Source: Candidatus Poribacteria bacterium (GTDB taxonomy: Bacteria > Poribacteria > WGA-4E > WGA-3G). From it: DNA of 64,000 nt. Made by a program: the position numbers and the translations under genes. Of this stretch, positions 13,591 through 63,378 are shown in pieces. How positions within the stretch are numbered: the first letter of the stretch is position 1; each line of letters starts with the position of its first letter. Under the pieces are notes generated by a model. It searched no databases. It worked only from the letters and a program-made list of their open reading frames with translations, and was not told the DNA's origin. The stretch covers positions 4,736,001-4,800,000 of the forward strand of contig OZ242029.1 in NCBI GenBank assembly GCA_965205015.1. The letters run 5' to 3'.

Positions 13591-13760
13591 TCAAGGCACC
13601 CAAACCTAAAGGATTGGGCTTGTGCTTCGTAGCAGTTCGCCTTCCGAGGAAGGACTTACATCTGCTCCACAGAGGGACCCAAGGCAGCCCTCAAGATGTT
13701 TATCGCAGCGTTTACGTCCCTGTCGCGGTGTGACCCACAGTCGGGGCATGTCCACTGCCG
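13570..13760 (-). ncRNA. Predicted TnpB omegaRNA/reRNA (scaffold overlaps the tnpB 3' end and right end; guide comes from the flank)
   Basis: Established TnpB architecture plus the right-end hairpin. The 5' boundary is approximate. Predicted guide UAGGAUACGGUUUGGUAGCG (13589-13570). Confidence 0.55.
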
Positions 13761-21568: not shown

Positions 21569-24091
21569 CTATTTTCGTATCAGCAGCTTCCGCGTAGAAC
21601 TGAACTCCCCAGCCGTGAGCGTGTAGAAATAGGTGCCGCTCGCAACAGGTTCACCCACTTCATTTTTTCCATCCCAATACGCCGCAAGGCTACGACTCTG
21701 ATAAATGCCTGCCGCCTGATACCCCAATACCAACGTCCGAATCAAGTTTCCGTCCATCGCGTAGATACGTATTGTCACATCCGCAGGGACTGCCAACTGA
21801 TACGGTATCCAGGTCTCCGGATTGAACGGGTTCGGATAGTTGGCAAGCAGTGCTGTTTCTTGTGGTGTTAGCGAGGCGAGGAGCGCCTCCAAAAAGCGGA
21901 TGCCCCTTTGCGATGTACTTTCTGTGCGGTTAAGTTGTTGCGCTTGTGCGAGCCACTGTGCGACCTCCATCCTTATCAGCGGGAACTCCAGATCGCGATT
22001 CCACGTTGAGGGTGCTGCGGCAGCGTCGCCAATTACTATTGCTACCAACACCAGATCCTGGATGTCCACGACACCATTCTGATTAACATCCGCAATGTTT
22101 TTGCCAGTCTGCCCAAAATTCGCTGACACCAACACTAAATCTAATATGTTAACCTCGCCATCCGCATTGGCATCTTCAGGCTGTGGTGAGGGTTCGTCCC
22201 CGTTCCCGTTCATATCTTCAGGTTTAGGGGGATCGGTTGAGTCAAACGGTGCCACGCGTTCGAGATCCCATAGCAGCACTGTTCCATCGTCGCTCCCACT
22301 TGCCAACGTCTTGCTATCCGAACTGAACACGACCTTAAAGACACTATCCTGATGTCTGGGGAGTACACGAGGTATACTCTGAATATCTCCCCCCGAGTTT
22401 ATCGCCCACAATTGAACGGCACCGTCCACACCGCCCGCTGCCAACAGCTCCCCATCTGGACTGAATGCCACGCTCGTGACAGCTTCCCAATGCCTGTCTA
22501 ACTGGAGCCAAGTTTCGTCCTCGTAGACAACCCCCAGCGGCTCTCCGACCCGATGCCCCCCATCCCATTCCAACACATCAATCGAGTTCAGCGACACTGA
22601 ATTCGCCCATCTTCCAACCGCCAGTTTCCGTCCATCTGGACTGAACGCTACACTCGTGCGAGGCAAGTCATCAGAGGAAAAGCCATGCTTTATCTCGGCA
22701 GGGGTATCCGTCTGTAAACTCCACACTTGAAGGGTACCGTCCGTACTTGCAGTCGCCAGTATCGGTAAATTCGGATGGAACGCCACACTTGTGACAGGTC
22801 CTGTATGCCCTTTGAGCTTCAATTGCCCAATCCGGCTGTCGGATGGGGAGATAATGATAGTCCCGTCCCATTGTCCAACCGCCATCCGCTTCCCATCCGG
22901 ACTGAATGCCAGGTTTGAGAGACGAAGTATATGGCTATTGAACTGATCCACTTCATGCCCCTCTCGCGGATTCCATACACGGATGGTACCGTCAACACTG
23001 GCACTTCCCACCCAGTCTCCATCCTCACTGTACGCGACATTCCAGATACATCCTGTATGCCCTATGAACGTATACTTGAGTTCATCAGCAGTTATGCCAT
23101 CGTAACTTATATCCTCATACAGGCTCATAGTATTGGCAGGATGTTCCCAATGGTCCAGCCGCAAGGCATAATCGTCCGGGAGACCGTGGGGATATTTGAA
23201 GTTGTCTCTCAAAGTCACCACCACCTCTATGCGAGGAACAGGATCAGGGAAATTAGGATTAGAATTGTGCGTCCTATAATAGTGTCCAGTTGCCTCAACC
23301 CTCTCATCTCCACTTACCTCTTGATACTCCACGAATCTCTGCCTGTAGGAGGGGCGGCCCGGTAGATCATAGGGCCCCAGTAGATTATATCTGTAGATGA
23401 TACCGTCCGTACTTGCACTCGCCATACGAGAACCATGGAACCCTAGGTTCATGACGCGTGGAACGGTGCGTCTGTTCTTCTGTTCATGCTCATGAACCTG
23501 AGCCATCTGTCTGAAAATCCCTTTTCGATTAGACCCGTAGATGACGGAAGAAAGCGATCCCGACTCGTTCCACTTCTCTACCACCGTCGCCACGTACTCA
23601 GCGGCCGGCTGAATCCATGCGATAGGGACATAAGTTGGAGGTGTCCCCCACCCACCAGACGTATGAACCAGTGTCTTCTGATCCGTTGCCATATCATACT
23701 TTATATGATAGATAGCACCAGATAAGTTGCCTAATGCTATGGTCTCTCCATCAGAAGTGATCACAACCCGACGGGCATCCCAAAAATCCCACCAAGGAAT
23801 ATGGGGCAACTTTTGGGCGGTGTCGGCATTGTAGATCCCAACACCTGAAGAAGTTATCAATATTAAACGTCTGCTATCTGGAAAATAGTCGAAATCCCAG
23901 AGGTAATTAACGATATGTCCATCTGACTCCCCCTCATCTACCCGTCCTTGGAGGTGAGGGCAACGAAACGTCAGCCCCAGCCGCGCCCTGGCACCCTCGG
24001 GTAAAAATAAATCTTGGGCAAAGGCAGGTAGCAGATAGAATGTTGCAATCAGAACGAGCATAGCGTAGATAAAAAACTTTTTCGTTTTCAT
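21569..24091 (-). CDS. Secreted WD40-repeat protein with dockerin and C-terminal FlgD/T9SS-like Ig domain
   Basis: Signal peptide. GHT...VAFSPDG...LW repeats. DANADGEVNILDL / DVNQNGVVDIQDL dockerin. LLANYPNPFNPETWIPYQL...WDGKN. Confidence 0.88.
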   Translation of the reverse strand: MKTKKFFIYAMLVLIATFYLLPAFAQDLFLPEGARARLGLTFRCPHLQGRVDEGESDGHIVNYLWDFDYFPDSRRLILITSSGVGIYNADTAQKLPHIPWWDFWDARRVVITSDGETIALGNLSGAIYHIKYDMATDQKTLVHTSGGWGTPPTYVPIAWIQPAAEYVATVVEKWNESGSLSSVIYGSNRKGIFRQMAQVHEHEQKNRRTVPRVMNLGFHGSRMASASTDGIIYRYNLLGPYDLPGRPSYRQRFVEYQEVSGDERVEATGHYYRTHNSNPNFPDPVPRIEVVVTLRDNFKYPHGLPDDYALRLDHWEHPANTMSLYEDISYDGITADELKYTFIGHTGCIWNVAYSEDGDWVGSASVDGTIRVWNPREGHEVDQFNSHILRLSNLAFSPDGKRMAVGQWDGTIIISPSDSRIGQLKLKGHTGPVTSVAFHPNLPILATASTDGTLQVWSLQTDTPAEIKHGFSSDDLPRTSVAFSPDGRKLAVGRWANSVSLNSIDVLEWDGGHRVGEPLGVVYEDETWLQLDRHWEAVTSVAFSPDGELLAAGGVDGAVQLWAINSGGDIQSIPRVLPRHQDSVFKVVFSSDSKTLASGSDDGTVLLWDLERVAPFDSTDPPKPEDMNGNGDEPSPQPEDANADGEVNILDLVLVSANFGQTGKNIADVNQNGVVDIQDLVLVAIVIGDAAAAPSTWNRDLEFPLIRMEVAQWLAQAQQLNRTESTSQRGIRFLEALLASLTPQETALLANYPNPFNPETWIPYQLAVPADVTIRIYAMDGNLIRTLVLGYQAAGIYQSRSLAAYWDGKNEVGEPVASGTYFYTLTAGEFSSTRKLLIRK

Positions 24092-25661: not shown

Positions 25662-28600
25662 ATGCCTAAACGCATTTTAGGGGTGTGCAGGCTATTTTTT
25701 TATCGCATGAAAACGACACAATTTCTCCTCACTTTTTTCATTGGGCTCCTTTTTCTAGCACCGCTGCACCCGGCGCGCCCGCACACCGTAAATGGTAACG
25801 CGAATCACAACGTGGACATTCCGGATACAGTTCTCCGTGGTGTTATCGAAGCCCGACTCAACAAGTCTTCTGGAGCAGACATCACCGCCACCGAGATGGC
25901 AACCTTGGATGAAGTCGTCAAAGCCGACCAAAACATTCATGATCTAACGGGTTTGGAGCATGCAACCGCTTTACAAAAGGTGCGCATCGGGCGCAATCGC
26001 ATACGATTTCCGCCCAGCGGAAGAACGCCACAAAACACCATTTCGGATTTGAGCCCCCTTACGAACCTAACAACGTTGATCGATCTGGACTTTACCACAC
26101 ATCGGATTACAGACATCTCGCCCCTTGCGACTTTAACAGCGTTGACAGACTTAACGCTTTCATACAATTCCGAGCTCACAGATATTTCGCACCTGCGGGG
26201 GTTAACAAGCGTGAAAAATCTTTTCCTTAACGCCTGTAACATCACGGACATAACAGCGATCGGAACGCTAACAAACTTGCGAGTGCTTGAGCTTGGGCGA
26301 AATTGGAACCTCCGGGATATCTCACCCTTGACGAATTTAAGGGATTTGAGAGTTTTGAAGCTTAATAGTACCGCCATCACCCCTGAAGGTCTATCCGCCG
26401 TGCTCCCGGCGTTAGAAGGTGCGAAGCGGCAAGGATCCGGACCAACGTATTGGGCGGGTTTAGACATTACGAACACTGACATCTCGGATCTCTCTGTGTT
26501 AGACAGGATACCCGACGGCGTGGTCCTGCACAACCTGTACCTGCAATACATGGGCACCAGCGCCAGTGAGACTCGCTTTTTTCTACTGAAGGATCTCACC
26601 CCCTTGGTGGATCTCATGAACAAGGGAAAGGTCATCGGTTCAGACACCAATATTCAATTGCGGTGGAACTTCAGACTGGACTATCCGTCCCTTTACGAAG
26701 ACATACCCGCCCTCTTAGCCAGTGTTCGTGGTGTCAGCTATCTTTCGTCTACGCCCGGGCTTGAGAGGGAATCTCCGACAGATGAACCTTACAGAGGCCA
26801 TCCCAGAATACGCCACACGTTTGTCGTGCGTGCCATTAATGACACCCCTTTTGGAAGCTATCCAATTGAGATAACTCGGAACCCTACATTCAACGGGGTG
26901 CCTGTTACGTGGAAGGTTACCGCGCCCGATGACACCCTAACGGAGACGAATGTCGTTACAGGTGACGATGGATTGGCAAGCGTCACCATTACCCTCGGAG
27001 ATGATGGGGAAACGCATACCGTGGAAGCCGTTGTCCCTGCGAACGAACGCGCAGCCACGGAGGGGCCTTCACACCCTGAACTCAAAGTGACCTTCACCGC
27101 CATAGCAGATCAGACAGTCGAACCGCCGCCGAGACCTACCCCACCACAGCCGCCCCGACTCCCCCGACTGACGGTGACGTTCGAGGACTACCCCGAAGAG
27201 AAGCCAGTTGATGAATTGACGCTCACGATCAGGTTTTCCGAACCCGCCATCGGTTTCGAGACGGAGGACATTACCGTAGAAACAGAACTCACCAGTGGGA
27301 AAGGGGATGCCACCTTGACGGACCTGACCCCCGAAACACCAATACACCCCGATAGACCCGAGCCTGACCCCATACAGACCTACACTGCAACCGTGGCACT
27401 CCCCGACCGCGCAAGAGGCACCGTGACACTCATCGTCCGAGAAAATGCCGCAATCACCCCGGCAACTGCCCCTGTGGAGAAGAGGGGTCCCGCTTCAAAT
27501 ACCGCCTCCGACCCCATCGAGTTCGGACGCAGACGTGTGATCGTCTGTCCACCATCTGTCGTGCCTATGGAGACAGTCATCTTCAATGAGTTCCGCAACG
27601 CTGAAAACGATACACACGACTGGATCGAACTCAAGAACATCTCCGATGAAGACGTGTCTCTCGCCGAATGGGAGATCAGTCTTGTCGTCCCGCACGCCAT
27701 CAGTCCGGCGGCACCGCAACAGGAAATCTTCGCAATGGATCGGGATATCGTCGCCTTTGGAGACTACACACTCCCCGCAGGAGGCATCCTGCTGATCGCC
27801 AATACCCACCCCAGTGAGACGGATCTGATACGCGGGCAGGACATCGAAAATCCCAACTATAATCCCGATCTCCTCCCCCACTATCTCATCGCACCGGAGA
27901 TGAAGTTGCCGAGTTCATTTTTGCTCATCCTCCGGAGTGTGCGCGATAAGAACGGTCAACACGAAGGCTTTGAAGACCTCGCAGGCGATTACCACAAAGA
28001 CGATGTCAACTACGCTACCAACATCTGGCCCCTGCTCTGTACCCCTGTCTATACCGGCACGGAGGCACGGTTCACCGTAGGCGACATCTATCAGCGGGTC
28101 ATGGTGCCAAAGGTTTCGTCGAGGACCCTGAACACCACGCCACAGCCCGAGAAACGCGGCTACCTTGAGGGCGCCTGGATGTTAAGTGTCTATCACAGTG
28201 GATTAGGCTATGACCCCGAGGCACCCCCTGAAACGAGTCTCGGCACGCCGGGGTATCCGCTGCCGGGACAACCGACTGAAAAGGGATGGGGAAACATCAG
28301 TTTTTCTGAGGTGATGTATGCGACGAACGATAACGGAGGACTCTCGCAGTGGATAGAACTCTACAACAACACCTCCGAGATCGTGGACCTCACGGATTGG
28401 GAGCTCATGATTGAGGCACGCGACAGCAAAACCGTCCGACGCTGGACATCGCTTCGGTTCAAATCGCTACACATCAGACCGAACGCAACCGTGCTACTGG
28501 TGGGGCGGAACGCCCGAACCTCAGGGAACATCCCTTCCGATCGGATTTACGATCTCTACCGTCGCAACATTGCGGCGTTTCGGCGACTCGGCGAGGGTGC

Positions 28601-29264
28601 GAACCGATTCCTCGGATGGGAGGGGTTTGCGCTGCGGTTGTTCTCCCCCGACGGCACTTTGGTGGATGTCGCGGGGAACCTTGATGGACGGCAAACGCAC
28701 GATAAACCGAAGTGGGAGTTGCCCGATGGCTGGACGAAAACCGGGACGCGTACCTCGTTGATCCGGGGGTATGATGCGCGTGTGCCACGGTTAGGGACGC
28801 TGTCGGGCAGTTTCGTACGGGCGGCGGATACAGCGTTGCTCAAGGGCTATTCGTATTGGGGACTTCCGACCGATAATGGGACCCCGGGGTATCGGCGGGG
28901 GAGTCCACTGCCTGTAACGCTGTCGAGTGTGCGTGCGGATCGTGCCGAGGGCGGGGTCGTAGTGAACTGGACGACGCAATCGGAGATGGAGAACGCCGGG
29001 TTCTATGTGCTGCGAAGTCAGAACAGCAAAACGGGATTCGTGAAAGTGAGCCCGACGCTGATTCCTGGAGCAGGCACGACTGCCGAACGAAGCACGTATA
29101 CCTACCGAGATACCACGGTGCAACCGAATGTGCCGTATTATTATCGGCTCGAAGAGGTCTCGTTATCGGGGGAACGTCGGGTAATGGCGACTGTGCGGCT
29201 ACGGGGACATCTCTTCGCTGCGGGAAAGACGCTTTGGAAGTGGGCGGATGTGAAACGGGAATAG
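25662..29264 (+). CDS. Large secreted internalin-like LRR + Ig-like + lamin-tail domain protein
   Basis: IPDTVLR cap. ISDLSPLTNLTTL LRRs. Pro-rich linker. FNEF..DWIELKN and FSEVMY..QWIELYN lamin-tail domains. LPVTLSS...WTTQSE C-terminal Ig. True start could be 25707 or upstream via frameshift. Confidence 0.85.
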   Translation: MPKRILGVCRLFFYRMKTTQFLLTFFIGLLFLAPLHPARPHTVNGNANHNVDIPDTVLRGVIEARLNKSSGADITATEMATLDEVVKADQNIHDLTGLEHATALQKVRIGRNRIRFPPSGRTPQNTISDLSPLTNLTTLIDLDFTTHRITDISPLATLTALTDLTLSYNSELTDISHLRGLTSVKNLFLNACNITDITAIGTLTNLRVLELGRNWNLRDISPLTNLRDLRVLKLNSTAITPEGLSAVLPALEGAKRQGSGPTYWAGLDITNTDISDLSVLDRIPDGVVLHNLYLQYMGTSASETRFFLLKDLTPLVDLMNKGKVIGSDTNIQLRWNFRLDYPSLYEDIPALLASVRGVSYLSSTPGLERESPTDEPYRGHPRIRHTFVVRAINDTPFGSYPIEITRNPTFNGVPVTWKVTAPDDTLTETNVVTGDDGLASVTITLGDDGETHTVEAVVPANERAATEGPSHPELKVTFTAIADQTVEPPPRPTPPQPPRLPRLTVTFEDYPEEKPVDELTLTIRFSEPAIGFETEDITVETELTSGKGDATLTDLTPETPIHPDRPEPDPIQTYTATVALPDRARGTVTLIVRENAAITPATAPVEKRGPASNTASDPIEFGRRRVIVCPPSVVPMETVIFNEFRNAENDTHDWIELKNISDEDVSLAEWEISLVVPHAISPAAPQQEIFAMDRDIVAFGDYTLPAGGILLIANTHPSETDLIRGQDIENPNYNPDLLPHYLIAPEMKLPSSFLLILRSVRDKNGQHEGFEDLAGDYHKDDVNYATNIWPLLCTPVYTGTEARFTVGDIYQRVMVPKVSSRTLNTTPQPEKRGYLEGAWMLSVYHSGLGYDPEAPPETSLGTPGYPLPGQPTEKGWGNISFSEVMYATNDNGGLSQWIELYNNTSEIVDLTDWELMIEARDSKTVRRWTSLRFKSLHIRPNATVLLVGRNARTSGNIPSDRIYDLYRRNIAAFRRLGEGANRFLGWEGFALRLFSPDGTLVDVAGNLDGRQTHDKPKWELPDGWTKTGTRTSLIRGYDARVPRLGTLSGSFVRAADTALLKGYSYWGLPTDNGTPGYRRGSPLPVTLSSVRADRAEGGVVVNWTTQSEMENAGFYVLRSQNSKTGFVKVSPTLIPGAGTTAERSTYTYRDTTVQPNVPYYYRLEEVSLSGERRVMATVRLRGHLFAAGKTLWKWADVKRE

Positions 29265-36067: not shown

Positions 36068-37027
36068 ATGAGAAAAGAAATAGGCGACAGAATGTTGAGA
36101 TATATCCGACAGGTATACCCCCTTCTCATCTGTTGTAGTATCGCGTTATTATTTCCTATAGACAGCGTGCCAGCAGGGAAATATCCGGGTGTCCCGCGCA
36201 AACTCCGATCGACGATTGATTCGCCTTTAGAGGCAACTTTCGAACTATATATCAAAAATCGACGGAGCCGCCGAATCTTGTCCACGACGGATCGGACGAG
36301 TTTCGTCGTCTACGACATTTCAAAAAATAAAACACTGGTGTCCATCAACGCAGATCGACAGATGATGGCAGCCTCGCTGATTAAGAACTTCGTTATGCTC
36401 GCCTATTTTCATGAAGTTAAATACGGACGGCAAGCACATACGAATATAAATAAGGGGCACCTGAAAGCAATGATCCAGTGGAGCTCAAACCTATCAACGA
36501 ACTATTTTATTCGGTTACTTGGCGGACCCGCACGCGTCGATCGGATACTGAAAAGGAATTATCCCCATTTTAAGCAGACTCGGATCGTCGAATACATACC
36601 CCGGGGCGGGCGGACCTACAAGAATATGACCTCCTCTCGTGATCTCGGCACCTTCTTCCTACGGTTGTGGCAAGACAGGCTCCCGCATTCGCAAAAAATG
36701 AAGTGGTACTTCAAACTCAAAAATGGGGATTACATCTTTAAACATACCTACATTCCCTCATCCGTGACCGTTTATAACAAAACCGGTACTGTCTACGGAT
36801 TGGTAGGAGATGGTGGCATATTAGTTTTCCGAGACCCCCAAGGTAAACAAAGAGCCTATGTTTTTGTTGGATTGATGGAAGACAGGACCAAGACGAACAT
36901 GAAAAATCGGTGGCAACCCTTTCCTAAGTGGAGAAATCAACGCACCTATATCCTGCGGAGGCTCTCCGAACGCGCCTACAAGTATATCTATGAAAATCAC
37001 TACGGCGGTAGCCTCGCCCGCCGCTAA
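36068..37027 (+). CDS. Serine hydrolase, class A beta-lactamase-related
   Basis: SxxK (AASLIK), SxN (SSN), KTG. Confidence 0.8.
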   Translation: MRKEIGDRMLRYIRQVYPLLICCSIALLFPIDSVPAGKYPGVPRKLRSTIDSPLEATFELYIKNRRSRRILSTTDRTSFVVYDISKNKTLVSINADRQMMAASLIKNFVMLAYFHEVKYGRQAHTNINKGHLKAMIQWSSNLSTNYFIRLLGGPARVDRILKRNYPHFKQTRIVEYIPRGGRTYKNMTSSRDLGTFFLRLWQDRLPHSQKMKWYFKLKNGDYIFKHTYIPSSVTVYNKTGTVYGLVGDGGILVFRDPQGKQRAYVFVGLMEDRTKTNMKNRWQPFPKWRNQRTYILRRLSERAYKYIYENHYGGSLARR

Positions 37028-37046
37028 TTGCTGGAAGGGGAATCCC

Positions 37047-37703
37047 ATGCGCCGCATTGTTGACATCGGTAGACGCATTGAACTCATACCCATTGACCCG
37101 CACTTCCACGATATTACTATTGGTCTCTATCGCCAGCAAATTGCCGATCCAACGACTGGAACGGCGTTCCCTGCTTTTCTTGTTCACACCTATAGCCAAA
37201 TGACAGGGGTAACCAAGAGAATTCAGGAAGTTGCGCGAGCCATGCAAACACTCGGTGGCATGCGCAAAACCCCCGAAGGCCTGCTCTATTTCCCTTGCAA
37301 AGATCCCCACGAATTCGCATGTCGCCGCGTCTTTTTGGAGGCATGCAAACTCGCATCAAACACCCACGCCGAACCACGCCCTTTAACCATACTGGATAAG
37401 AAATCCCAACTCACCATCACCGTCGATTCAATTGGAAACGGTACCTATCAGGTGAGGGCAAACGGCGAAGGCAGAGGCGCAGCACGACGCATTTCAGCGA
37501 TTGCTGGCGGCTTGATGAAACTCGGCGAAATGGAAAGCGTCAAAACCGCTACCAACGATACTGTCCGTTTTGCCTGTGGGCATTCCCATGACGCACTTAT
37601 CGGACTCCTGTTGATCCGCGCCCCGAACGTCAGAGTCGCTCTACGAGAAGAGGAAATGGGTGCCGCGCGCGGGGTACTTTCCGCTCCAAGCCAGCAAACC
37701 TAA
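37047..37703 (+). CDS. Hypothetical protein
   Basis: GAAGGGG RBS before MRRIVDIG. F-x-C-x-x-x-H motif occurs twice (FPCKDPH, FACGHSH). Confidence 0.65.
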   Translation: MRRIVDIGRRIELIPIDPHFHDITIGLYRQQIADPTTGTAFPAFLVHTYSQMTGVTKRIQEVARAMQTLGGMRKTPEGLLYFPCKDPHEFACRRVFLEACKLASNTHAEPRPLTILDKKSQLTITVDSIGNGTYQVRANGEGRGAARRISAIAGGLMKLGEMESVKTATNDTVRFACGHSHDALIGLLLIRAPNVRVALREEEMGAARGVLSAPSQQT

Positions 37704-37857
37704 AGATCACAAATCGACCCTCTCTATCACGCCCATATTTTTCCACGCCATGAAGTGTGAATGTGTGCGCCTCCTGTTTTTGTTTTTTTTTGACACGTAA
37801 AAGAAATCCGTGATATAATTCCAGCATAGTTTATGCTTCGCGAAGAGGTCAACTCGG

Positions 37858-38601
37858 ATGAACCTATTTTTTAGAATCTTCTCTACAGTGATAGTCGCCT
37901 TACTCACGGCCTATATGATTGGCTGTGAGAGTTTCAACGAAGCGGAAGAACTCCCCGTCGTAGCATTCCTCAGCGCGACGCCACCAGAGAGTGAGGTTCC
38001 AGCAAATGGAACCATCACGCTTAACTTTGACAACGCGCTTGAAGATATAACAGTCCAAGCCAGTATCGGAAAAGTGGGGAAAACCATTATCTCCGGCAAA
38101 ACCGTTACGATCAACGGACCCTTCACACAGGGTGAACTCGCTTTTACCATCACTTGGGCAGATGGTGCGCAAACGCTCAATTATACCGTCACCGCTCCCG
38201 ATCCGAGCATCTCTACAGACACCGAAGACCCCATTAAACCACCAGAGCCGAAGCCGCAACTGACGAAGTCGCCTTTTAACGTCTCTGACAAAAACTTCAC
38301 AACACAGGTCATGGCGTCTGAATTGCCCGTCGTGGTCTATTTCTGGGCAGACTGGTGTCCGCCCTGCAAATGGATGGCACCCATTATCAAGGAGGTCGCC
38401 GCCGAAAACCGGGACACCTTCCTGATCGCGAAGTTAGACGTTGATAGAAATCAGCGGACCACAGAAAAATATCGGATTGAAGCGATTCCGACTTTCATCG
38501 TATTCAAAGATGGAAAGAAGATCGGACGGTTCGTAGGGGGAATGCCGAAAGCCCCGCTTCTCCAGCACATTCGTCAAGTGCTAAACGCTCAGGGAAATTA
38601 A
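37858..38601 (+). CDS. Lipoprotein with Ig-like module and C-terminal thioredoxin (WCPPC)
   Basis: Lipobox MIGC. FWADWCPPC, KLDVD, IPTF..FKDG. Confidence 0.88.
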   Translation: MNLFFRIFSTVIVALLTAYMIGCESFNEAEELPVVAFLSATPPESEVPANGTITLNFDNALEDITVQASIGKVGKTIISGKTVTINGPFTQGELAFTITWADGAQTLNYTVTAPDPSISTDTEDPIKPPEPKPQLTKSPFNVSDKNFTTQVMASELPVVVYFWADWCPPCKWMAPIIKEVAAENRDTFLIAKLDVDRNQRTTEKYRIEAIPTFIVFKDGKKIGRFVGGMPKAPLLQHIRQVLNAQGN

Positions 38602-38612
38602 GGAACTCAAGG

Positions 38613-39653
38613 ATGCCTAACCAAACTGTCAAATCGATGACGGGTCGTGAACGGGTGCTCGCTGCGCTCCGCAACGAACTCACTGACCGCACGCCTGTCT
38701 GTAATCCGACTTCCGTTGCTACGGTCGAACTGATGGATCTCGTCGACGCCCCCTTCCCACAGGCAAATCGAGAACCCGACCTCATGGCACGACTCGCTGC
38801 CACAGGATATACCGAACTCGGGTTCGATACGATCATGCCCGTTTTCACAATTATCCAAGAATCCAGCGCACTCGGTTGCAAAATTCAGTGGGAACAGAAG
38901 GACAACTGGCCCACCGTCAGAATGCGAGAACCGATCTGGGAAGACGTTGATGATATCGTTGTCCCGGACGACTTCTTAACGCATCCAGACACCCAATGCG
39001 TCCTTGAAGCGATTAAAATCCTGAAGAAAGAATACGGTGATGACGTCGCTATCATCGGGAAAACGATGGGACCCTGGTCGCTCGGCTACCACTGTTTTGG
39101 GGTTGAACCCTTCCTGTTGCTCTCACTTGATGATCCCGGCAAAACGAAACTCGCCCTTGATCGGATGAAGGAAGCCACTGTGCAATTCGGGGTCGCGCAA
39201 ATCGAGGCGGGTGCCGACGCACTGACGCTCCCCGACCACGCGACAGGTGATCTGGTCAGCGGTGAATACTACCAACGCTACCTTCGGGACCTCCACATCG
39301 AATTCGTTGAACGTATCCCTATCCCCTTAATCCTGCATATCTGTGGTCGCACTGTTGACAGGATGGAATACATCTCACAAACCGGTATGTCCGCCTTTCA
39401 CTTCGATTCCAAAAACGAACCGCAGGAATCGATGGATATCGTGAAAGAACGTATCGCCCTTGTTGGCAACATTAACAATCCCGAAACACTGTTTGCGAAA
39501 GGACCGGAAGACGTTAAAGCGGAGGTCATAAAAAACCTTGACGCGGGAGTCCCACTCATTGGACCCGAGTGCGCCATCCCCCTTCAGACAACCATCGAAA
39601 ACCTCCAAGCGATTCCAGAAGCCGTCCAAGAATGGCACCACGCACACCTATAA
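38613..39653 (+). CDS. MtaA/CmuA family methylcobamide methyltransferase (UROD superfamily)
   Basis: MTGRERVLAAL, DRTPV, ESSALGC, GPWSL, LHICG, GNINNP, PECAIP. Confidence 0.85.
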   Translation: MPNQTVKSMTGRERVLAALRNELTDRTPVCNPTSVATVELMDLVDAPFPQANREPDLMARLAATGYTELGFDTIMPVFTIIQESSALGCKIQWEQKDNWPTVRMREPIWEDVDDIVVPDDFLTHPDTQCVLEAIKILKKEYGDDVAIIGKTMGPWSLGYHCFGVEPFLLLSLDDPGKTKLALDRMKEATVQFGVAQIEAGADALTLPDHATGDLVSGEYYQRYLRDLHIEFVERIPIPLILHICGRTVDRMEYISQTGMSAFHFDSKNEPQESMDIVKERIALVGNINNPETLFAKGPEDVKAEVIKNLDAGVPLIGPECAIPLQTTIENLQAIPEAVQEWHHAHL

Positions 39654-39672
39654 ACCATCGACGGAAAAACAG

Positions 39673-40293
39673 ATGAAAAAAAATACGGTTTTACTGCTAA
39701 CGACCTGTTTAATCCTGACCAATTTTTTAACGATAGGCTACACACAAGCACCGAACCTTGAACACCTACAAGCCTCCGATGTCAATGCCGATGGCGTCGT
39801 AAACATCCTCGATCTGACGCTTGTCGCCAAAAACATCGGTACGACACCCACCGCAGATCAATCCCTGAACCCGGATGTCAATGCGGATGGAACGGTCAAT
39901 CCCCTCGATTTGACGCTCGTCGTGCGTTATTTTGGTAAGAGATCCGGTATCCCGTTTGAAGTCACGGATACAACTTTTGACGATATTGTCTTGGGTTCTG
40001 AACTGCCGATTGTGGTAGAATTTAAAGACGATAACTGACGCTTCTGCATAATGATGCGACCGGTGGTCGCAGCAGTCGCCTTAGAATATCGCGAGACGTT
40101 CAGTTTCGTCAAGTTGGATGTACCTACCCAACCCGAGAAAACATCTGAATATCGCATTCGTGGAACGCCGACTTATATCGTATTTAAGGATGGAGAGATT
40201 GCCCAAGGCTTCGCCGGCGCCATGCCTAAAGCTGCACTGGTGCAACGTATCCTTGGAAGTTTAGAGATTGAAGTAACTGAGGAGAAAAAATGA
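39673..40293 (+). CDS. Secreted dockerin-thioredoxin, probable selenoprotein (UxxC; in-frame TGA at 40036-40038), 206 aa
   Basis: ORFs 39538-40038 and 40051-40293 share a frame. Read-through gives VEFKDDN-U-RFC...KLDV...GTPT..FKDG. A SECIS-like hairpin follows. Confidence 0.85.
40055..40071 (+). promoter_or_regulatory. Candidate bacterial SECIS element
   Basis: TGCGACC-GGT-GGTCGCA: perfect 7-bp stem with a G-starting loop 23 nt after the UGA. Confidence 0.6.
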
Positions 40294-41984
40294 GAAAAAT
40301 CACCTTTTTATTTCTAACGACCTGTTTAATCCTCACGAATTTAACCGTAGGCTATACACAAGACGCGGATCTCGATACTTTAAGAGCCTCCGATGTCAAC
40401 GCTGACGGCGTGATAAACATCCTCGATTTGACGCTCGTCGCCGCAAGCATCGGCACGACACCCGCCGCAGATCAGCCCCTGAACCCAGATGTCAACGGGG
40501 ACGGTACCGTCAATATCCTCGACTTGACACGCGTCGCGAGTCACTTGGGTAAAACTGTTCCGCCGCCTGTCGCGTTCGTTGATGCGAATCCAGCAATCGG
40601 CAGACAGATCCCTGCGAATGCTACCATCATTGTAATTTTCGACATGTCGCCAGATAACGTTACAGTCAATGCGGGTGTCGCGACAACTGTTGATAAAACG
40701 GTAACAATCACAGGTCCCTTCCCTCCGGGTCCCTTTGATTTGACAATCGCTTGGACGGGCGGAAGCCAAACGCTCACCTACACTGTCGATATCCCAGATA
40801 TCGTGGCTCCCGAAGTTACCGGTGGCACCATCAGCGATGGCGATAAGGACCTTGACGCCGAAACGGTTAACACCAACGGACGGATCGAAGTTGAATTCAG
40901 CGAAGCGGTGAGTGGCAACATCGCACTGCAAACCGCAGCAGGTGAGGATGCGGGTTGGATCGGCAAAGTTGAAGGCAAAAAAGGGACGCTTGAATTGGTC
41001 AAAGGCAGAGAGATAGGCAACGAAACGACCTATGTTATAGCGGGACAGGTCAGCGACGCTGTAGGCAATTCAACCGATATTCGCATTACCTTTACGCTCC
41101 GTCCACCCGCGGCATTCGTTAGCGCACACCCAGCATCCCCATCCCAAATCGCTGTCGACGATACCATTACCGTGACTTTTGACAACCCTCCAGAAGACGT
41201 TAGGACGAGCACAGGGGATGCCACAACCACTGGGAAAACAGTGAAAATCACGGGTCCCTTCAAACCGGGTCCTCTCGTCTTGACGATCGTTTGGGCGGAT
41301 GGTATCCAAACCCTCAACTATACCGCCCATGTCCCGGATACCGAGGCACCCAAAATTACCAGTAGCAGCGTCAATAACGGGGATAAGGACGTTGACCCCG
41401 AAGCCCTTAACCTCCCTGGGCGGATCGAAGTTACCTTCAACGAAACAGTAACCGGCAACATCGCACTGCAAACCGCAGCGGGTGCTGATGCGGGGTGGCT
41501 CGGAAAAATCGCAGGAAAGAAAGGGACGCTTGAACTCGTCAGAGGCAAAGAACTCGGCAACGAGATAACCTATGTTATTGCCGGAAAAGTTAGTGATGCT
41601 GCGGGCAATTCAACCGACCTCAACATTCGGTTTACCACTTCCAGTAAAACCTCCGGGATCCCATTTGAAGTCACCGATGCGACGTTTAATAGCCTTGTGC
41701 TTAACTCAGAAGTCCCCGTCTTGCTTGAGTATGTAAAGGACGGCTGACCGTCCTGTCAACGGATGGCGCCAGTTGTCGCCCAAATTGCTTCAGAGAACCG
41801 GAACACATTTGCCGTCGCAAAACTGAATATTAAGAATGCCCGACAGACGCTCCGAAAATATCCGATTCGACAAACGCCGACCTATATAGTGTTCCAAGAC
41901 GGAAAACGGGTCGGAAGTTTCGCAGGTGTCATACCAAAAGCCCAGCTACTTCAGAAGATTCTTAGCGTCATAGACGTTGAATAG
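40290..41984 (+). CDS. Secreted dockerin-(Ig)n-thioredoxin, probable selenoprotein (UxxC; in-frame TGA at 41745-41747), 564 aa
   Basis: ORFs 40290-41747 and 41763-41984 share a frame. Read-through gives LEYVKDG-U-PSC...KLNI...QTPT..FQDG. Contains two tandem ~180-aa Ig modules. Confidence 0.83.
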
Positions 41985-42075
41985 AATTAGGGGATAGAAG
42001 GATGGAAGAAAGGAAGGACAGAGCCCCCAATCACCTTCTAATCTTCCAATCTTTGCCTCCTGTTATAGATTCCAC

Positions 42076-43992
42076 TCACAAACGACTCCGATGATAAAAC
42101 CACCACTCCAACAGGAGCAGCAGGAGTGCCGCGAGCGCAAACCAACGCCATATCTCCTGCACCATCGGTTGCAATCCGCCTTCTACATCCGTTGAAGGCG
42201 CTGCAACCGTCGCCGTTGGAGAATGCGACAGTGCCGATTCCGTAGCGTTCAGCAGATTGACCGTGAATCGCTCAAGCTGCACATCATCCGCAAAAAGGGT
42301 GTAGACCCCAATCTGATCCGTCTCGGTAAACATTGAATTCGCCAATCCGACCGTTGTTCCATCAGGCTTCTGCACGTGAAGTGAGCGTCCCTCACGTGTC
42401 AACCCGACGCGCACCTGTTCTCCGGTTCGGAAGGCGTGTCGGGTTCCACTTCCTTGAGACGCAATCGGCTGCAGCGGGGCAGTTCCTCCCTCAAACCACG
42501 CTAAACACTGATAGATGAATTGCGGTCCATCGGGGACAGTCAGCGCAAAGGCAGAAATTTCCGGGTTAAACGCATCGAACTCAAAAACAAGGAGCCGGGT
42601 GTCGGATCTGCTACCGATCCATATCAATACCCCCTTCTCCGTTTCAACAAGCGACTGTCCCCAGAGTGGCAATACTCGGTGCATAGACTCGCTTACCTGT
42701 AATCCCTGCAGCGACACACTCTCCATGAGCGGGTGATTCCCATCCTCTTTGAGAACCCGCACAGGTGTCCTCTCGGTTTCAACAATCGGAGCCCCTTCTC
42801 CAATGAAGGGCAGATTGTCACCGGGCGAGATGAAGATCAGACCCGTTGCAGAGGGTACCTCAGACGCTTCATATAGTATGGAGGGTCCAAACGCCTCGCG
42901 TCCGGCGAGCGTACCCCCATCGAAAATTGCGACATCCGCATCACCAATGCCGTGATAATCCGCTGGATCAACCACATAGAGTTTCACGTGATCTCCATAG
43001 GATTTCAAAAGGTCGGGTAGTAACGATTTTCGATTGTCACTCACCAGCAAAATCCGTAGTGAGGGGACAGCGGATAGGAGCGCCGAAGCCCTGTCATCAA
43101 GCGGAAAATCGTCATCTACACCCAGGTGGACGCTGAGAACCTTCCCCTCTAAACCGTTCGGATCCCCTGAAAACAGGACTGATTTGGTCGCATTCGGAGG
43201 GATAGACACCGTTCTATCATCCAGCGGAACCGCTTCCACCGCCAATTGAACGTCGAATTCTTTGGGGCTCTCCGTAAAATTCTGAATACCCATGAGGACT
43301 TCGTAGCGATCCGCTAATATCTCAACGCTGAACCGAACGATACCGACATTCTCCGCATTCCCACCCACTCCGATTTTCTGCACCGGCAGCGATATATCCG
43401 GTAGGTTTTCAAACGTCCCACTGATAAAGACGATCTTATCTTGGGGTGAATCCGCATAGCGGGTAGCGGCATCAAACACAGGACGGAGATGTCGCGGGGC
43501 ATGCGTCTGCGCAATATCCTCTATCGCTTGATGCAGTTTCGAGGTATCCGTTGTAAAAGCTTGTTGGATATGCGTATCAGCGGAATTCGTCACCATGAGC
43601 ATCATCCCACCGCTCGCGGCAACCTCTTTAATATATTTCTGTGCTTCCTGTTTTGCGAGTGCGAGTCGAGGGGATCCCATCTCTGTTGACGACATCCTCG
43701 CGGAATTATCAACGATGAGAATCGCTTTGCCGGGCATGAATCCGGGTCTATGCAGCGCAGGGCGCGCAACGCTGAGTGTAAGAAGCAACAAAAACAGCAC
43801 CTGGAGCAGGGGGAGGAGTAGGTTCCGGAGTCGTTGGAAAGGGACATTTGCTCTCCGATCTTCGTCAGTGGAGCGCCAAAATAGAATGCTGGGGACGAGG
43901 TGGGTGTGGCGGCGTAATTTCAGAAAATGAAGTGCCACCACGATTGGAATAACACCCAGTAGATAAAACGCGGCAGGGTTTAGGAATTGCAT
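42076..43992 (-). CDS. BatA domain / von Willebrand factor A protein
   Basis: MQFLNP...LHFLK...VPS N-terminal double TM. DNSARM degenerate MIDAS. LLLLEWW C-terminal TM. Confidence 0.85.
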   Translation of the reverse strand: MQFLNPAAFYLLGVIPIVVALHFLKLRRHTHLVPSILFWRSTDEDRRANVPFQRLRNLLLPLLQVLFLLLLTLSVARPALHRPGFMPGKAILIVDNSARMSSTEMGSPRLALAKQEAQKYIKEVAASGGMMLMVTNSADTHIQQAFTTDTSKLHQAIEDIAQTHAPRHLRPVFDAATRYADSPQDKIVFISGTFENLPDISLPVQKIGVGGNAENVGIVRFSVEILADRYEVLMGIQNFTESPKEFDVQLAVEAVPLDDRTVSIPPNATKSVLFSGDPNGLEGKVLSVHLGVDDDFPLDDRASALLSAVPSLRILLVSDNRKSLLPDLLKSYGDHVKLYVVDPADYHGIGDADVAIFDGGTLAGREAFGPSILYEASEVPSATGLIFISPGDNLPFIGEGAPIVETERTPVRVLKEDGNHPLMESVSLQGLQVSESMHRVLPLWGQSLVETEKGVLIWIGSRSDTRLLVFEFDAFNPEISAFALTVPDGPQFIYQCLAWFEGGTAPLQPIASQGSGTRHAFRTGEQVRVGLTREGRSLHVQKPDGTTVGLANSMFTETDQIGVYTLFADDVQLERFTVNLLNATESALSHSPTATVAAPSTDVEGGLQPMVQEIWRWFALAALLLLLLEWWFYHRSRL

Positions 43993-57759: not shown

Positions 57760-58653
57760 GTGAATATGGAAAGGGAAGAGATCATCCATAGATTTCAGAA
57801 CTTGAATGTATGGAAAAGAGGACATAAAGTAGCACCCCACAAGCCTCTTTTAGTCTTGTACGCAATTGATAAATTGCGACGTGGAGAAAACCAACTTATA
57901 CCATACACAGAAGTAAAGGAGAAACTTTCAGAATTACTGATCAAATTTGGAACAAGCAAGTCGGAACCCCGTCCTCACTATCCGTTTTGGCGCCTACGCC
58001 AAGATAATGTTTGGAAAGTAACCGACGATCATCTTATTAAGGAAACCGACAGCGGAGATGCCCACGTCACTGACCTGAAGCTCCACGGTGTCTCTGGAGG
58101 ATTTCACAAAGCAATTGCTCATCACCTACAGAACGATTTCAGCCTTACTTTAGAAATAAGCGAAAGCATGCTTGATCATTTTCGTTATTCAAAACACAAG
58201 GATATTTCACAGGCTGTTGGGATTGAGGACCTGTCTCATGTGCCCAAACGACAAAGACGAGAGTGGAACTTTCCCAAAAACGTACGGAAAGCCTATGAAT
58301 ATAAATGTGCAGTTTGTGGTTTTGATGTAAAATTGCACCACCGACATGTTGCGCTAGAAGCCGCACATATTCAGCCCCTTAAAAAAGGTGGACCTGATAT
58401 AGCAGAAAATGGCTTGGCTCTTTGTTCACTACACCATGAACTATTTGATCGTGGAGTTTTCACGTTGTCGGAGCAATTAAAAGTACTCGTGTCTAAGTAC
58501 GCAAATGGGTCAACGGGCTTTGATAAATGGTTGATGCGTTTTCATGGAAAGAAAATCAATCTTCCGCAGAGTCGAATGTATTACCCTCGCATCAGCTTTA
58601 TAGACTGGCATTTCAGAGAAGTATTCAAAGACCCTTATCGCGAAAAAACTTGA
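57760..58653 (+). CDS. Phosphorothioated-DNA-binding (SBD)-HNH restriction endonuclease-like protein
   Basis: APHKPLL and YPFWRL sulfur-binding-domain motifs. CAVCG, LEAAHI, NGLALCSLHH.FDRG HNH. Confidence 0.8.
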   Translation: MNMEREEIIHRFQNLNVWKRGHKVAPHKPLLVLYAIDKLRRGENQLIPYTEVKEKLSELLIKFGTSKSEPRPHYPFWRLRQDNVWKVTDDHLIKETDSGDAHVTDLKLHGVSGGFHKAIAHHLQNDFSLTLEISESMLDHFRYSKHKDISQAVGIEDLSHVPKRQRREWNFPKNVRKAYEYKCAVCGFDVKLHHRHVALEAAHIQPLKKGGPDIAENGLALCSLHHELFDRGVFTLSEQLKVLVSKYANGSTGFDKWLMRFHGKKINLPQSRMYYPRISFIDWHFREVFKDPYREKT

Positions 58654-58679
58654 CATTTAACACAAATTTGTGCTAAAAT
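58650..58679 (+). promoter_or_regulatory. sigma70 promoter (extended -10) for leader 2 and the ssp-like operon
   Basis: TTGACA at 58650, TGcTAAAAT ending 58679. ATG 6 nt downstream suggests a leaderless transcript. Confidence 0.65.
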
Positions 58680-58685
58680 CTAAAT

Positions 58686-58838
58686 ATGGAAAATCGGGAT
58701 ACAAATACCACAGCTAAAACACTACACCTGCTTAACCGCAATCGCTGCTCATGGCGATTCTTGATGCCCTTAAAGTCTGCTTGTATACAAGATTTTAACA
58801 AGTCGACTCGCCCCCCCCCCCCACTTTACAAACGATAA
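58686..58838 (+). CDS. 50-aa upstream leader peptide ending PPPPLYKR* (candidate attenuator)
   Basis: MENRDTNTTAKTLHLLNRNRCSWRFLMPLKSACIQDFNKSTRPPPPLYKR*. C12 tract at 58811-58822. Confidence 0.55.
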   Translation: MENRDTNTTAKTLHLLNRNRCSWRFLMPLKSACIQDFNKSTRPPPPLYKR

Positions 58839-59021
58839 GCAATATACTTCATAAGACATTGACAGCATCTGCCAATGTTCTGTTTCCGCGCCCGCGTGTC
58901 CTCTCTCGCGATGATCCTCTATGCGGGCTGTTTTTGTTGTCCTATCTTCTACCGTTACTCTCAATTTCTCTCTCATGTTGCTGCTTGCTCCAGAGGTTGC
59001 TACATTTTGGAGGAACGAAAT

Positions 59022-59957
59022 TTGAGTAACGCCTACACAACCGCACCTCAGACGATTCATCCATCTTTTTCGGGACACCAAACGTTTCCCTTCCGGTATA
59101 CCTGGCTCAAAAAAGGCGTTGATGCCGTGACAGAAAATCCGACCGTCTTTTCATCGGAGAACGCCTCTGTCAGTTTAGGTGTTGGAAAAAACATGGTCAG
59201 TTCTATTCGGCATTGGTGTCGAGTATCAAGACTCATTGAGACAATAAAGCCAGTACCGTATCAGCGCGGGCAATTTGCCCCCACTGCACTCGGAAAAGCC
59301 ATTTTTGACGATAAAGAAGGATTTGACCCATATCTTGATGATCCAGCCACGCTGTGGCTAATTCATTGGCAAATTGCAACAAATACCGATCCGGCAACCG
59401 CGTGGTATTGGGCATTTAATGTTTCAAGGGGCAACCAATTCACACCCCAAATATTCGCACGAGAACTGTCCAAATGGGCACAGGAAAAGAAACGATCCAT
59501 GCGGTCGGTTTCTGATAATACACTCCGACGAGATGTCAACTGCTTTATTCGAACCTACTGTCAGTCCCGTCACACCGATGTCGTTGTCGAGGAGACCCTT
59601 GATTGCCCTCTCGTTGAACTCAATTTAATTGCCGAATTGCCAGACGGTAATGGATATGAATTCCAGCGAGGTGATAAAAAAACACTACCAATCGAAACCG
59701 TTGCGTGGGCACTGGATACGTTTTGGCAGCTTTACTTCCCACGGCAAGAAGCACTCTCGTTCTCAGAATTGATGTATGCGCCATCAAGTCCGGGACGGGT
59801 TTTCAGGTTAGACGAAGACACAATGACAGTATATCTTGAGAACCTCGCACAACTCACGGAAGGTGCGTTGCAATATGATGAAACAGCAGGTCTAAAGCAG
59901 GTCTATCGACATAGAGATTTAAACCAGATGGAACTTTTAAAGGAATATTATGGGTAA
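59022..59957 (+). CDS. DUF4007 family protein (SspB-like)
   Basis: FSGHQTFPFRYTWLKKG, LGVGKNMV.SIRHW, DPYLDD..TLWLIHW, CPLVEL. GGAGG RBS before TTG at 59022. Confidence 0.88.
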   Translation: MSNAYTTAPQTIHPSFSGHQTFPFRYTWLKKGVDAVTENPTVFSSENASVSLGVGKNMVSSIRHWCRVSRLIETIKPVPYQRGQFAPTALGKAIFDDKEGFDPYLDDPATLWLIHWQIATNTDPATAWYWAFNVSRGNQFTPQIFARELSKWAQEKKRSMRSVSDNTLRRDVNCFIRTYCQSRHTDVVVEETLDCPLVELNLIAELPDGNGYEFQRGDKKTLPIETVAWALDTFWQLYFPRQEALSFSELMYAPSSPGRVFRLDEDTMTVYLENLAQLTEGALQYDETAGLKQVYRHRDLNQMELLKEYYG

Positions 59958-63366: not shown

Positions 63367-63378
63367 AGGGAGAAAAAC

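Follow-up and report, generated by a model that had tools for sequence, protein, structure and literature searches.

Introduction

Thioredoxins in which selenocysteine (Sec) takes the place of a Cys in the CxxC active site are the closest described relatives of the protein discussed here. The known Sec-thioredoxin is a small cytoplasmic single-domain protein, and Kim et al. reportedly studied the one from Treponema denticola in 2015. In the accessible text of PMC13188914, the family (Trx, PF00085, UxxC) is listed above the heading 'Predicted with high confidence', with Kim et al. 2015 as its reference 84, and other thioredoxin-fold families with Sec at the CxxC position are predicted as well. 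The same text gives a model of the bacterial selenocysteine insertion sequence (bSECIS), with an apical loop of 3-9 nucleotides (nt) and a G in its first two positions, an upper stem of 4-16 base pairs, 16-37 nt between UGA and loop, and a minimum free energy of -7.5 kcal/mol or lower (PMC13188914). The present analysis concerns a gene of Candidatus Poribacteria bacterium, hereafter the long gene, which lies in a 64,000-nt stretch of contig OZ242029.1 (assembly GCA_965205015.1, positions 4,736,001 to 4,800,000 of the forward strand). This whole stretch is referred to as the window, and all coordinates are counted from its first letter.

An earlier note on this DNA had proposed that the long gene hides a selenoprotein of the form dockerin-(Ig)n-thioredoxin with a UPSC active site, Ig standing for immunoglobulin-like modules. 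This proposal is supported by the conservation of the TGA codon, the existence of Cys homologues, selection on the downstream part and a hairpin behind the TGA. With a probability of roughly 0.87, the long gene appears to be a genuine selenoprotein gene. The in-frame TGA almost certainly encodes Sec, and we infer Sec rather than another residue from the sequence context described below.

Architecture of the long gene

The open reading frame (ORF) that starts at ATG 40290 is 485 amino acids (aa) long (40290-41747) and closes with ...EYVKDG ahead of a TGA at 41745-41747. The same frame runs on for 78 further codons to a TAG at 41982-41984, so that read-through would give the junction L-E-Y-V-K-D-G-U-P-S-C-Q-R-M-A-P-V-V. 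The thioredoxin domain lies across this junction: PF00085 scores 65.7 bits on the read-through product (cut-off 23.5, E = 4.1e-18), and its match, from profile position 4 to 101 of 103, crosses the TGA and covers 98 of the 103 positions. The best solved relatives are classical thioredoxins, which align over the whole domain and place U486 opposite the first Cys of WCGPC. The same residue aligns with the Cys of a full-length homologue, P0122 (CPFC), and with that of the CPPC lipoproteins described below.

Comparisons among long forms are based on 20 sequences, namely the window and 19 loci from other Poribacteria genome records. The active site reads U486-P-S-C489, and both C489 and the cis-Pro P530, which stands in the context I-R-Q-T-P-T-Y-I-V-F, are invariant in all 20. 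Two observations of the earlier note are thereby borne out, the TGA at the active-site position (YVKDG-U-PSC) at 41745-41747 and the intact downstream half with its QTPT motif, 78 codons to the TAG.

Ahead of the thioredoxin domain, the product begins with a probable signal peptide, whose GYT/Q end corresponds to ...SYA/Q, GHA/Q or GYA/Q in orthologues. A type I dockerin follows (Dockerin_1, PF00404, 47.3 bits against a cut-off of 22.9), with two calcium-binding repeats, DVNADGVINILD and DVNGDGTVNILD. The Ig-like spacer is matched by Big_5 in two stretches (51.1 bits). The number of Ig modules differs among orthologues, in which the length before the TGA totals 305-613 aa.

The NCBIfam TrxA equivalog model TIGR01068 scores 64.2 bits on the long product, below its cut-off of 96.8, and no selenoprotein-specific NCBIfam model exceeds its own cut-off on the ORFs of the window. 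Judged by these models, the long product is a thioredoxin-fold relative, not a TrxA equivalog, and it also lacks the W-C-G-P-C context. Annotation pipelines overlook the gene because it falls below the equivalog cut-off and is matched by no selenoprotein-specific model.

Conservation of the TGA codon and selection downstream of it

With the read-through product as query, a search over 5.8 billion proteins returned 487 matches, of which the best 120 (39-82% identical) were characterised. In 119 of these 120, the protein stops exactly ahead of the active-site residue (...KDG, ...TDW, ...KDN and the like), while the remaining one ends earlier, within the Ig region; the thioredoxin Pfam domain is present in none of the 120. 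A search with the thioredoxin part alone gave 74 matches, 73 of them with the same truncation ahead of the active-site residue. P0122 is a full-length protein of 386 aa with the same architecture and a Cys at the Sec position (W-C-P-F-C). When the 73-aa piece after the TGA served as the query, all 108 matches were separate ORFs of 71-77 aa, under names such as 'thioredoxin domain-containing protein', 'thioredoxin 1' and 'thioredoxin-like negative regulator of GroEL'. Since the downstream matches are all separate proteins of 71-77 aa, public gene calls appear to split the long gene in two.

Of 75 related loci that were fetched, 37, all from different genome records, encode a thioredoxin of this family. 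Nineteen of these 37 have the long form, and its active-site codon is TGA in every one (19/19), with no TAA or TAG. A short form, described below, occurs in 36, with TGA in 33, TGT in 3 and again no TAA or TAG; both forms are adjacent in 18 loci. The frame past the active-site codon stays open for 77-86 codons in long forms and for 77-92 across both forms. The named homologues and all 75 loci come, without exception, from Candidatus Poribacteria records. A profile search against 1.84 billion representatives found 166 proteins at E <= 1e-30, mostly Ig-module or unrelated multi-thioredoxin proteins. After motif filtering of the 147 new matches, 3 fragments end in the manner of the Sec type and 14 hold a Cys motif, while P0061, P0006 and P0129, known from the protein searches, have their own last residue at profile position 521.

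Selection past the TGA was assessed by the pairwise Nei-Gojobori ratio of non-synonymous to synonymous substitution (dN/dS), as the earlier note had proposed. For the long forms, 188 of 190 pairs were usable and gave 0.34 past the TGA (maximum 0.75), against 0.30 for the 33 codons before it, so the segment does not evolve neutrally. The 34 short Sec forms give 0.18 on both sides. The Pro codon directly after the TGA is kept in 19 of 20 long forms with synonymous variety (CCG 16, CCC 2, CCA 1), and the Cys codon of U-x-x-C is kept in all 20 (TGT 15, TGC 5). A pseudogene created by nonsense mutation is ruled out by the undiminished constraint past the stop, together with the conservation of the TGA among relatives.

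A small hairpin downstream of the TGA

The candidate SECIS that the earlier note had seen as GGCG...CGCC at 41765-41780 is present at exactly those coordinates, with GGCG at 41765-41768 and CGCC at 41777-41780. Its loop, AGUU, is 4 nt long and lies 23 nt from the UGA; with G at loop position 2 followed by U, and with 5 of 6 stem positions paired, loop, stem and spacing fit the bSECIS geometry given in the available part of PMC13188914. RNAalifold, unaided and applied to 60 nt from the TGA of the 20 long forms in an ungapped alignment, predicts a helix of columns 21-24 and 26 with columns 31 and 33-36, which corresponds to 41765-41780. Across the long forms, four pairs of this helix are invariant, one position has a C.U mismatch in 18 sequences and an A-U pair in 2, and the pair 23/34 is CG in 14, UG in 3, AU in 1, UA in 1 and broken in 1. 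The covariation check proposed beforehand was thus run, with one pair covarying and a score equalled by 15 of 500 shuffles; slid registers pair far less. Support from pairing and covariation for the long-family helix is modest.

Stronger evidence than covariation comes from frozen synonymous sites and from the association between TGA and hairpin. Over codons +7 to +13, the long forms that keep the residue have no synonymous change at GCG (14/14), CCA (18/18), GTT (20/20), GTC (20/20), GCC (18/18) and ATT (18/18), and only codon +12 (Glu) varies synonymously, with GAA in 12 and GAG in 1. The four-fold codons that flank this stretch use 3-4 codons each, and the frozen sites point to a constraint on the RNA itself. 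Furthermore, the helix has 4-6 of 6 positions paired in all 54 TGA genes, compared with 1-3 of 6 in all five Cys relatives, namely three short orthologues and two lipoproteins. A G within the first two loop positions is found in 54/54 TGA genes and in 0/5 Cys genes; in the long forms it stands at loop position 2 in 20/20.

The short family has a hairpin of its own, in which pairing is maintained by variants such as GAGACC/GGUCUC, GGCACC/GGUGUC and GAAACC/GGUUUC. Fifteen cells are changed on both sides of the helix, and its covariation score is reached by none of 500 shuffles. Nine short-form genes (loci L005, L006, L011, L020, L023, L025, L026, L028 and L031) have lost two pairs of this common hairpin, and in eight of the nine its place is taken by a larger, shifted stem-loop that has an internal loop, a lower stem and GGUC as its 4-nt apical loop. 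Judging from its fold, the GGUC stem-loop appears to be a second SECIS design inside one gene family.

Several results weigh against a SECIS-driven insertion of Sec. The covariation in the long family depends on a single variable pair. The hairpin 41765-41780 alone has an energy of -5.3 kcal/mol, above the -7.5 kcal/mol limit of the model in the accessible text of PMC13188914; a constrained fold that includes an upstream hairpin reaches -8.5 kcal/mol, and the unconstrained minimum over 50 nt is -10.3 kcal/mol, but with a different fold. The 63 nt past the TGA of the long gene fold no better than shuffles (z = 0.05), and folding energy was dropped as evidence, three regions matching their shuffles (z = 0.05, -0.26 and -0.40). 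An extended lower stem for the long-form hairpin was rejected as well, with 75% of cells paired and 67 of 500 shuffles reaching the pairing percentage of the whole structure. Rfam has no match at gathering score over the window, and a scan of 39600-42100 at E up to 10 gives nothing but weak, unrelated matches. RNAalifold finds no consensus structure in the short family, because nine loci use the shifted, larger stem-loop. No tRNA, and so no tRNA-Sec, was found by ARAGORN in the 64-kb window, and selA, selB and selD are absent from the 52 different window ORFs scanned.

Decoding of the TGA

ARAGORN likewise found no tRNA over the 75 loci, and the three sel genes are absent from the 54 neighbour ORFs of nine loci. 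Nevertheless, the machinery has been reported for the lineage: Table S4 of Slaby et al. 2017, as far as its entries could be consulted, gives two SelA, one SelB and one SelD for Ca. Poribacteria WGA-3G, and the same source has SelA and SelB co-occurring in most sponge-symbiont bins and missing in most related references (PMC5649159). Locus L025, a WGA-3G contig, carries both TGA-thioredoxin genes. In the available portion of a 2026 study, Poribacteria are also among nine phyla with Sec-type Group 4 [NiFeSe] hydrogenases (PMC13582414).

Elsewhere in the window, TGA serves as a regular stop. The 47 long ORFs end in TAA (25), TAG (16) and TGA (6), both thioredoxin genes being among the six, and frames of 10-143 codons follow the other four TGA-ended ORFs. 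A genome-wide reassignment of TGA (codes 4 or 25) is ruled out, as TGA ends these four long ORFs and the short paralogue, and long ORFs are intact under table 11. Three other frames of 200 codons or more in the window contain a single in-frame TGA. All three were rejected as further selenoprotein candidates, given that they overlap longer ORFs on the opposite strand; the single-TGA rule also missed both thioredoxin genes and so does not give an exhaustive scan.

The reading that fares best against Sec insertion keeps the same SECIS and SelB route and has Cys inserted by a tRNA of the tRNA-ReC type, which would make the product an ordinary C-P-S-C thioredoxin. According to the accessible text of PMC13582414, such tRNAs read UGA as Cys with a downstream SECIS in some Sec-using genomes. 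The sequence alone cannot tell Sec from SECIS-dependent Cys insertion at codon 486, which is a further point against a firm assignment of Sec. Nonetheless, relatives with a plain TGT or TGC codon have lost the hairpin, and a costly recoding to the same residue is hard to reconcile with a TGA kept in 52 of 55 orthologues. Moreover, the proteins reported for WGA-3G in the portion of PMC5649159 available include SelA and SelD, whose only use is in the Sec route. Insertion of Cys is therefore regarded as improbable.

Alternatively, the TGA could be a real stop, so that the locus would hold either a pseudogene or a 485-aa dockerin-Ig protein followed by a 73-aa thioredoxin fragment that starts at ATG 41763. 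Gene callers do predict both pieces, as all 108 downstream matches attest, and the Met at +6 is nearly invariant. Nevertheless, a Met at this position is usual in thioredoxins, and two PDB thioredoxin alignments have Ile and Met there. A stop here would cost the thioredoxin its catalytic residue and interrupt its fold at the active site. Furthermore, dN/dS is alike on both sides, TGA is the only stop codon ever found at this site, and each Cys homologue is one uninterrupted protein. Protein-level constraint also acts on the P-x-C codons, which lie after the TGA and before ATG 41763; being conserved and yet synonymously variable, they argue against a separate start at 41763. The conserved hairpin begins at the G of this ATG and would hinder initiation there. 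Taken together, these observations make termination at the TGA very hard to defend.

Finally, the idea that a near-cognate tRNA for Trp, Cys or Arg reads through UGA-C independently of any SECIS, or that TGA is reassigned throughout the lineage, deserves very little credence: a C does follow the TGA in 20/20 long forms and UGA-C is a leaky stop context in E. coli, but TGA ends four other long ORFs and ends the short paralogue only 255 nt past its own internal TGA, a thioredoxin with Trp or Arg in place of its nucleophile would be inactive, and the hairpin, the frozen synonymous sites and the loss of the hairpin in Cys forms would all be left unexplained.

Gene block, paralogues and family history

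Four closely spaced plus-strand genes occupy 37858-41984, and the long gene comes last among them (Table 1). The short paralogue immediately upstream appears to use TGA twice, as the presumed Sec codon at 40036-40038 and as the true stop at 40291-40293. In the sequence ATGA, this stop shares bases with the start codon of the long gene; as far as the gene arrangement goes, the overlap suggests translational coupling of both selenoprotein genes. The consensus sigma-70 site lies 39 nt upstream of the lipoprotein gene and is likely, by its sequence, to be the promoter of the whole block. The earlier note had grouped the short, long and lipid-anchored thioredoxins as a set of surface redox proteins; of this, the presence of the paralogues in one probable operon holds.

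Table 1. Predicted features of the long gene and of the gene block in which it lies.
Feature	Position	Strand	Remarks
Promoter-like site TTGACA-18 nt-TG-n-TATAAT	37790..37819	+	12/12 consensus matches; consensus match only
Cys paralogue, lipoprotein thioredoxin (lipobox ...MIGC, active site C-P-P-C)	37858..38601	+	No hairpin after the Cys codon
MtaA/CmuA-family methyltransferase, URO-D fold	38613..39653	+	NF004889, 261 bits, cut-off 244
Short Sec-thioredoxin paralogue (signal peptide, dockerin, thioredoxin)	39673..40293	+	Putative Sec codon 40036-40038, U-R-F-C
SECIS-type hairpin of short paralogue, GCGACC-GGU-GGUCGC	40056..40070	+	Pairs with covariation
Long Sec-thioredoxin gene (564 codons + stop)	40290..41984	+	Signal peptide, dockerin, two Ig-type module pairs, C-terminal thioredoxin; one in-frame TGA
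Probable Sec-type signal peptide, residues 1-24 (MRK + hydrophobic core + GYT/Q)	40290..40361	+	Inferred from sequence
Type I dockerin, residues 34-86, two DxNxDGxxNxxD repeats	40389..40547	+	Pfam PF00404
Two tandem pairs of Ig-like modules, residues about 91-452, spacer	40560..41645	+	Pfam Big_5
Thioredoxin domain, residues 460-557, spans the TGA	41667..41960	+	Pfam PF00085
Putative Sec codon (UGA), residue 486 of G-U-P-S-C	41745..41747	+	TGA in 20/20 long forms; Cys in homologue P0122
SECIS-type hairpin GGCGCC-AGUU-GUCGCC	41765..41780	+	5/6 positions paired, with a single C.U mismatch
cis-Pro codon, P530 of T-P-T	41877..41879	+	Invariant in 20/20 aligned long forms

Maximum likelihood, applied to 60 thioredoxin domains over 108 columns with the root at the midpoint, gives a tree with many unresolved forks and two clades, each supported at 100/100. 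The 20 long Sec forms, P0122 with its Cys and two C-P-P-C lipoproteins make up one; the other contains the 34 short Sec forms, among which 3 Cys forms branch off at two or more points. The Cys forms, the lipoprotein of the window included, thus fall within Sec-dominated clades. Rooted at the midpoint only, this topology suggests that a single ancestor of the Sec type was duplicated and that Sec later gave way to Cys in some descendants. Combined with the equal distance of the hairpins from the codon in both families, the tree indicates that the two TGA codons of the window were inherited and did not arise independently. The earlier argument that two independent nonsense mutations at one codon are unlikely was consequently right in that the codon is not a nonsense mutation (TGA in 19/19 loci) and failed in treating the two TGA codons as independent events.

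In nine loci whose neighbourhood was compared, the gene upstream of the Sec-thioredoxin genes is URO-D/MtaA-like in six and a 2-oxoacid dehydrogenase E2 in three; the E2 neighbour marks a clade that has the short form only. On the other side, a protein with a BatA N-terminal and a VWA domain is encoded convergently to the long gene (42076-43992, minus strand) and is the neighbour in 8 of the 9 loci, which may reflect conserved gene order and not a functional association. A 237-aa ORF (36990-37703, plus strand) without Pfam or NCBIfam match stands between a beta-lactamase-family gene and the thioredoxin block, and loci L001, L003 and L005 hold match-less ORFs at the equivalent position. Neither the 52 different ORFs scanned in the window nor the 54 neighbour ORFs of the nine loci include an electron donor of the DsbD/CcdA type.

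Proposed mechanism

In the mechanism that we propose, a ribosome would reach the UGA at 41745, and the stem-loop 20-35 nt downstream (41765-41780) would recruit SelB with Sec-tRNA(Sec). Sec would be put in as the N-terminal, nucleophilic residue of U-P-S-C, and the 78 further codons would complete the fold. The resulting 564-residue precursor would be exported through the general secretory pathway, and the selenolate of its thioredoxin would sit on a stalk of four Ig modules, placed by way of the dockerin. The mature protein may thus be an exported thiol/selenol-disulfide oxidoreductase that is held away from the binding target of its dockerin. It would be co-transcribed with the short dockerin-thioredoxin selenoprotein and, in this genome, with the Cys lipoprotein thioredoxin. 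Under limiting selenium or SelB, translation would stop at the UGA and give a 485-aa product without active site. Compared with Cys, Sec would be expected to provide faster thiol-disulfide exchange and protection from irreversible over-oxidation. Such chemistry would suit an enzyme that works outside the cytoplasm in oxygenated sponge tissue or seawater.

Dockerins, cohesins and stalk modules in Poribacteria

The dockerin is found on many other proteins of these bacteria. Of 16 further proteins encoded in the fetched loci, 13 have a dockerin; in 10 of the 13 it is fused to an ATP-binding cassette solute-binding domain (SBP_bac_5), a Cu monooxygenase-like, a DUF3108-like or an esterase domain, WD40 propellers or a leucine-rich repeat (LRR)-GHL15 combination, and 1 of the 13 has no other domain match. 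Since the same dockerin is fused to so many different domains, it appears to be a general tag of the Poribacteria secretome. Proteins with both a cohesin and a dockerin occur in other Poribacteria (L061:2370-3656, 34.0 bits; L066:2718-4109, 34.6 bits; cut-off 24.1). No cohesin was detected among the 52 different ORFs of the window or the 54 neighbour ORFs of the nine loci. A cohesin partner for the long product is plausible. It is conceivable, and at present rather unlikely, that the short and long dockerin Sec-thioredoxins plug into cohesin-bearing proteins as a surface redox assembly in which the Ig spacers would set the reach, an idea akin to the cohesin-like scaffold of the earlier note, which had seen oxidative defence as its possible role.

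Eight loci (L008, L009, L010, L012, L014, L015, L019 and L021) encode lipoproteins of about 217-232 aa with a lipobox (...GC) and an Ig pair of the stalk type; these have no thioredoxin, and TAA is their stop codon. Apart from the long gene, the stalk module thus occurs on its own in a family of lipoproteins.

Other genes of the window

At the far end of the window, 57760-63999 holds a phosphorothioated-DNA-binding restriction endonuclease (NF045808, 305 bits), a DUF4007 protein, a BrxC-like P-loop protein of 1138 aa and an ORF resembling phosphoadenosine phosphosulfate (PAPS) reductase that leaves the window. By its gene content the region looks like a DNA phosphorothioation and restriction defence island, presumably of the Ssp/Dnd kind. 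A TnpB-family RNA-guided endonuclease gene of the IS200/IS605 type lies at 13656-14870 on the minus strand (NF040570, 206.6 bits, cut-off 100). Two large eukaryote-like repeat proteins are also encoded, one with WD40 repeats and a C-terminal sorting domain of the type IX secretion system (21569-24091, minus strand), and one of 1200 aa with LRR and lamin-tail domains (25662-29264, plus strand). Large proteins of this kind are typical of sponge symbionts.

Significance

The public records examined misannotate the family as a truncated 'hypothetical', 'dockerin' or 'Ig-like' protein with a separate 'thioredoxin' of 71-77 aa. Gene counts, pangenomes and expression studies of sponge symbionts therefore misread it. 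A thioredoxin, not necessarily one of those described here, is among the highly expressed genes of the Poribacteria single-amplified genome 3G (PMC5087111). If correct, the present reading extends the thioredoxin selenoprotein family to an apparently secreted, dockerin-tagged multidomain form. The 54 Sec genes with a very small natural SECIS, next to 5 Cys relatives without the hairpin, are material for the study of minimal SelB recognition. They also supply concrete candidate selenoproteins that could underlie the Sec-machinery enrichment reported for sponge symbionts in the available part of PMC5649159. Should the surface assembly exist, it would be the first dockerin-tethered selenoprotein system, and one reason for the enrichment of SelA and SelB in sponge symbionts over their free-living relatives that the same part of PMC5649159 reports.

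Comparison with known systems

The hairpin of the long gene resembles the fdhF-type SECIS of E. coli, as far as it is described in the accessible text of PMC13188914, in lying just past the UGA within the coding region, in its loop with G then U and in its spacing. It differs in being much smaller, with 5 of 6 pairs, in having an unsupported lower stem and in an energy above the limit of the model.

With regard to the protein, the known Sec-thioredoxin and the long product share the thioredoxin fold, Sec in place of the first Cys of CxxC, a small in-frame stem-loop after the UGA and the existence of Cys homologues. Unlike the known protein, the long product combines its thioredoxin domain with a signal peptide, four Ig-like modules and a dockerin; its family in Poribacteria has the motif U-P-[FSAT]-C where the classical context is W-C-G-P-C. 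A conserved pair of short and long genes, confined to Poribacteria among the records examined, also sets it apart.

The other predicted Sec families of the thioredoxin fold are presumed, by family, to act outside the cytoplasm, although neither 'periplasm' nor 'secreted' occurs in PMC13188914. They have in common with the long product a thioredoxin-fold oxidoreductase domain with Sec at the CxxC position. The best models for the long product, however, are those of classical thioredoxin (TIGR01068, TrxA, TrxC) and not TlpA, DsbE or DsbA.

The cellulosome-type proteins that bear dockerins belong to the type I dockerin-cohesin systems of Clostridia. They and the long product both have a type I dockerin with two calcium-binding repeats, although the long product has its dockerin at the N-terminus and carries a redox domain instead of a glycoside hydrolase. 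None of the Sec families of the thioredoxin fold listed in the available portion of PMC13188914 has a dockerin, in contrast to the long product. Searches of the literature on Poribacteria and on selenoprotein thioredoxins with a dockerin gave no description of this family. Sec-thioredoxin as such is an already known family, and what is new is the signal-dockerin-Ig architecture, the short and long pair, its spread across Poribacteria and the very small SECIS.

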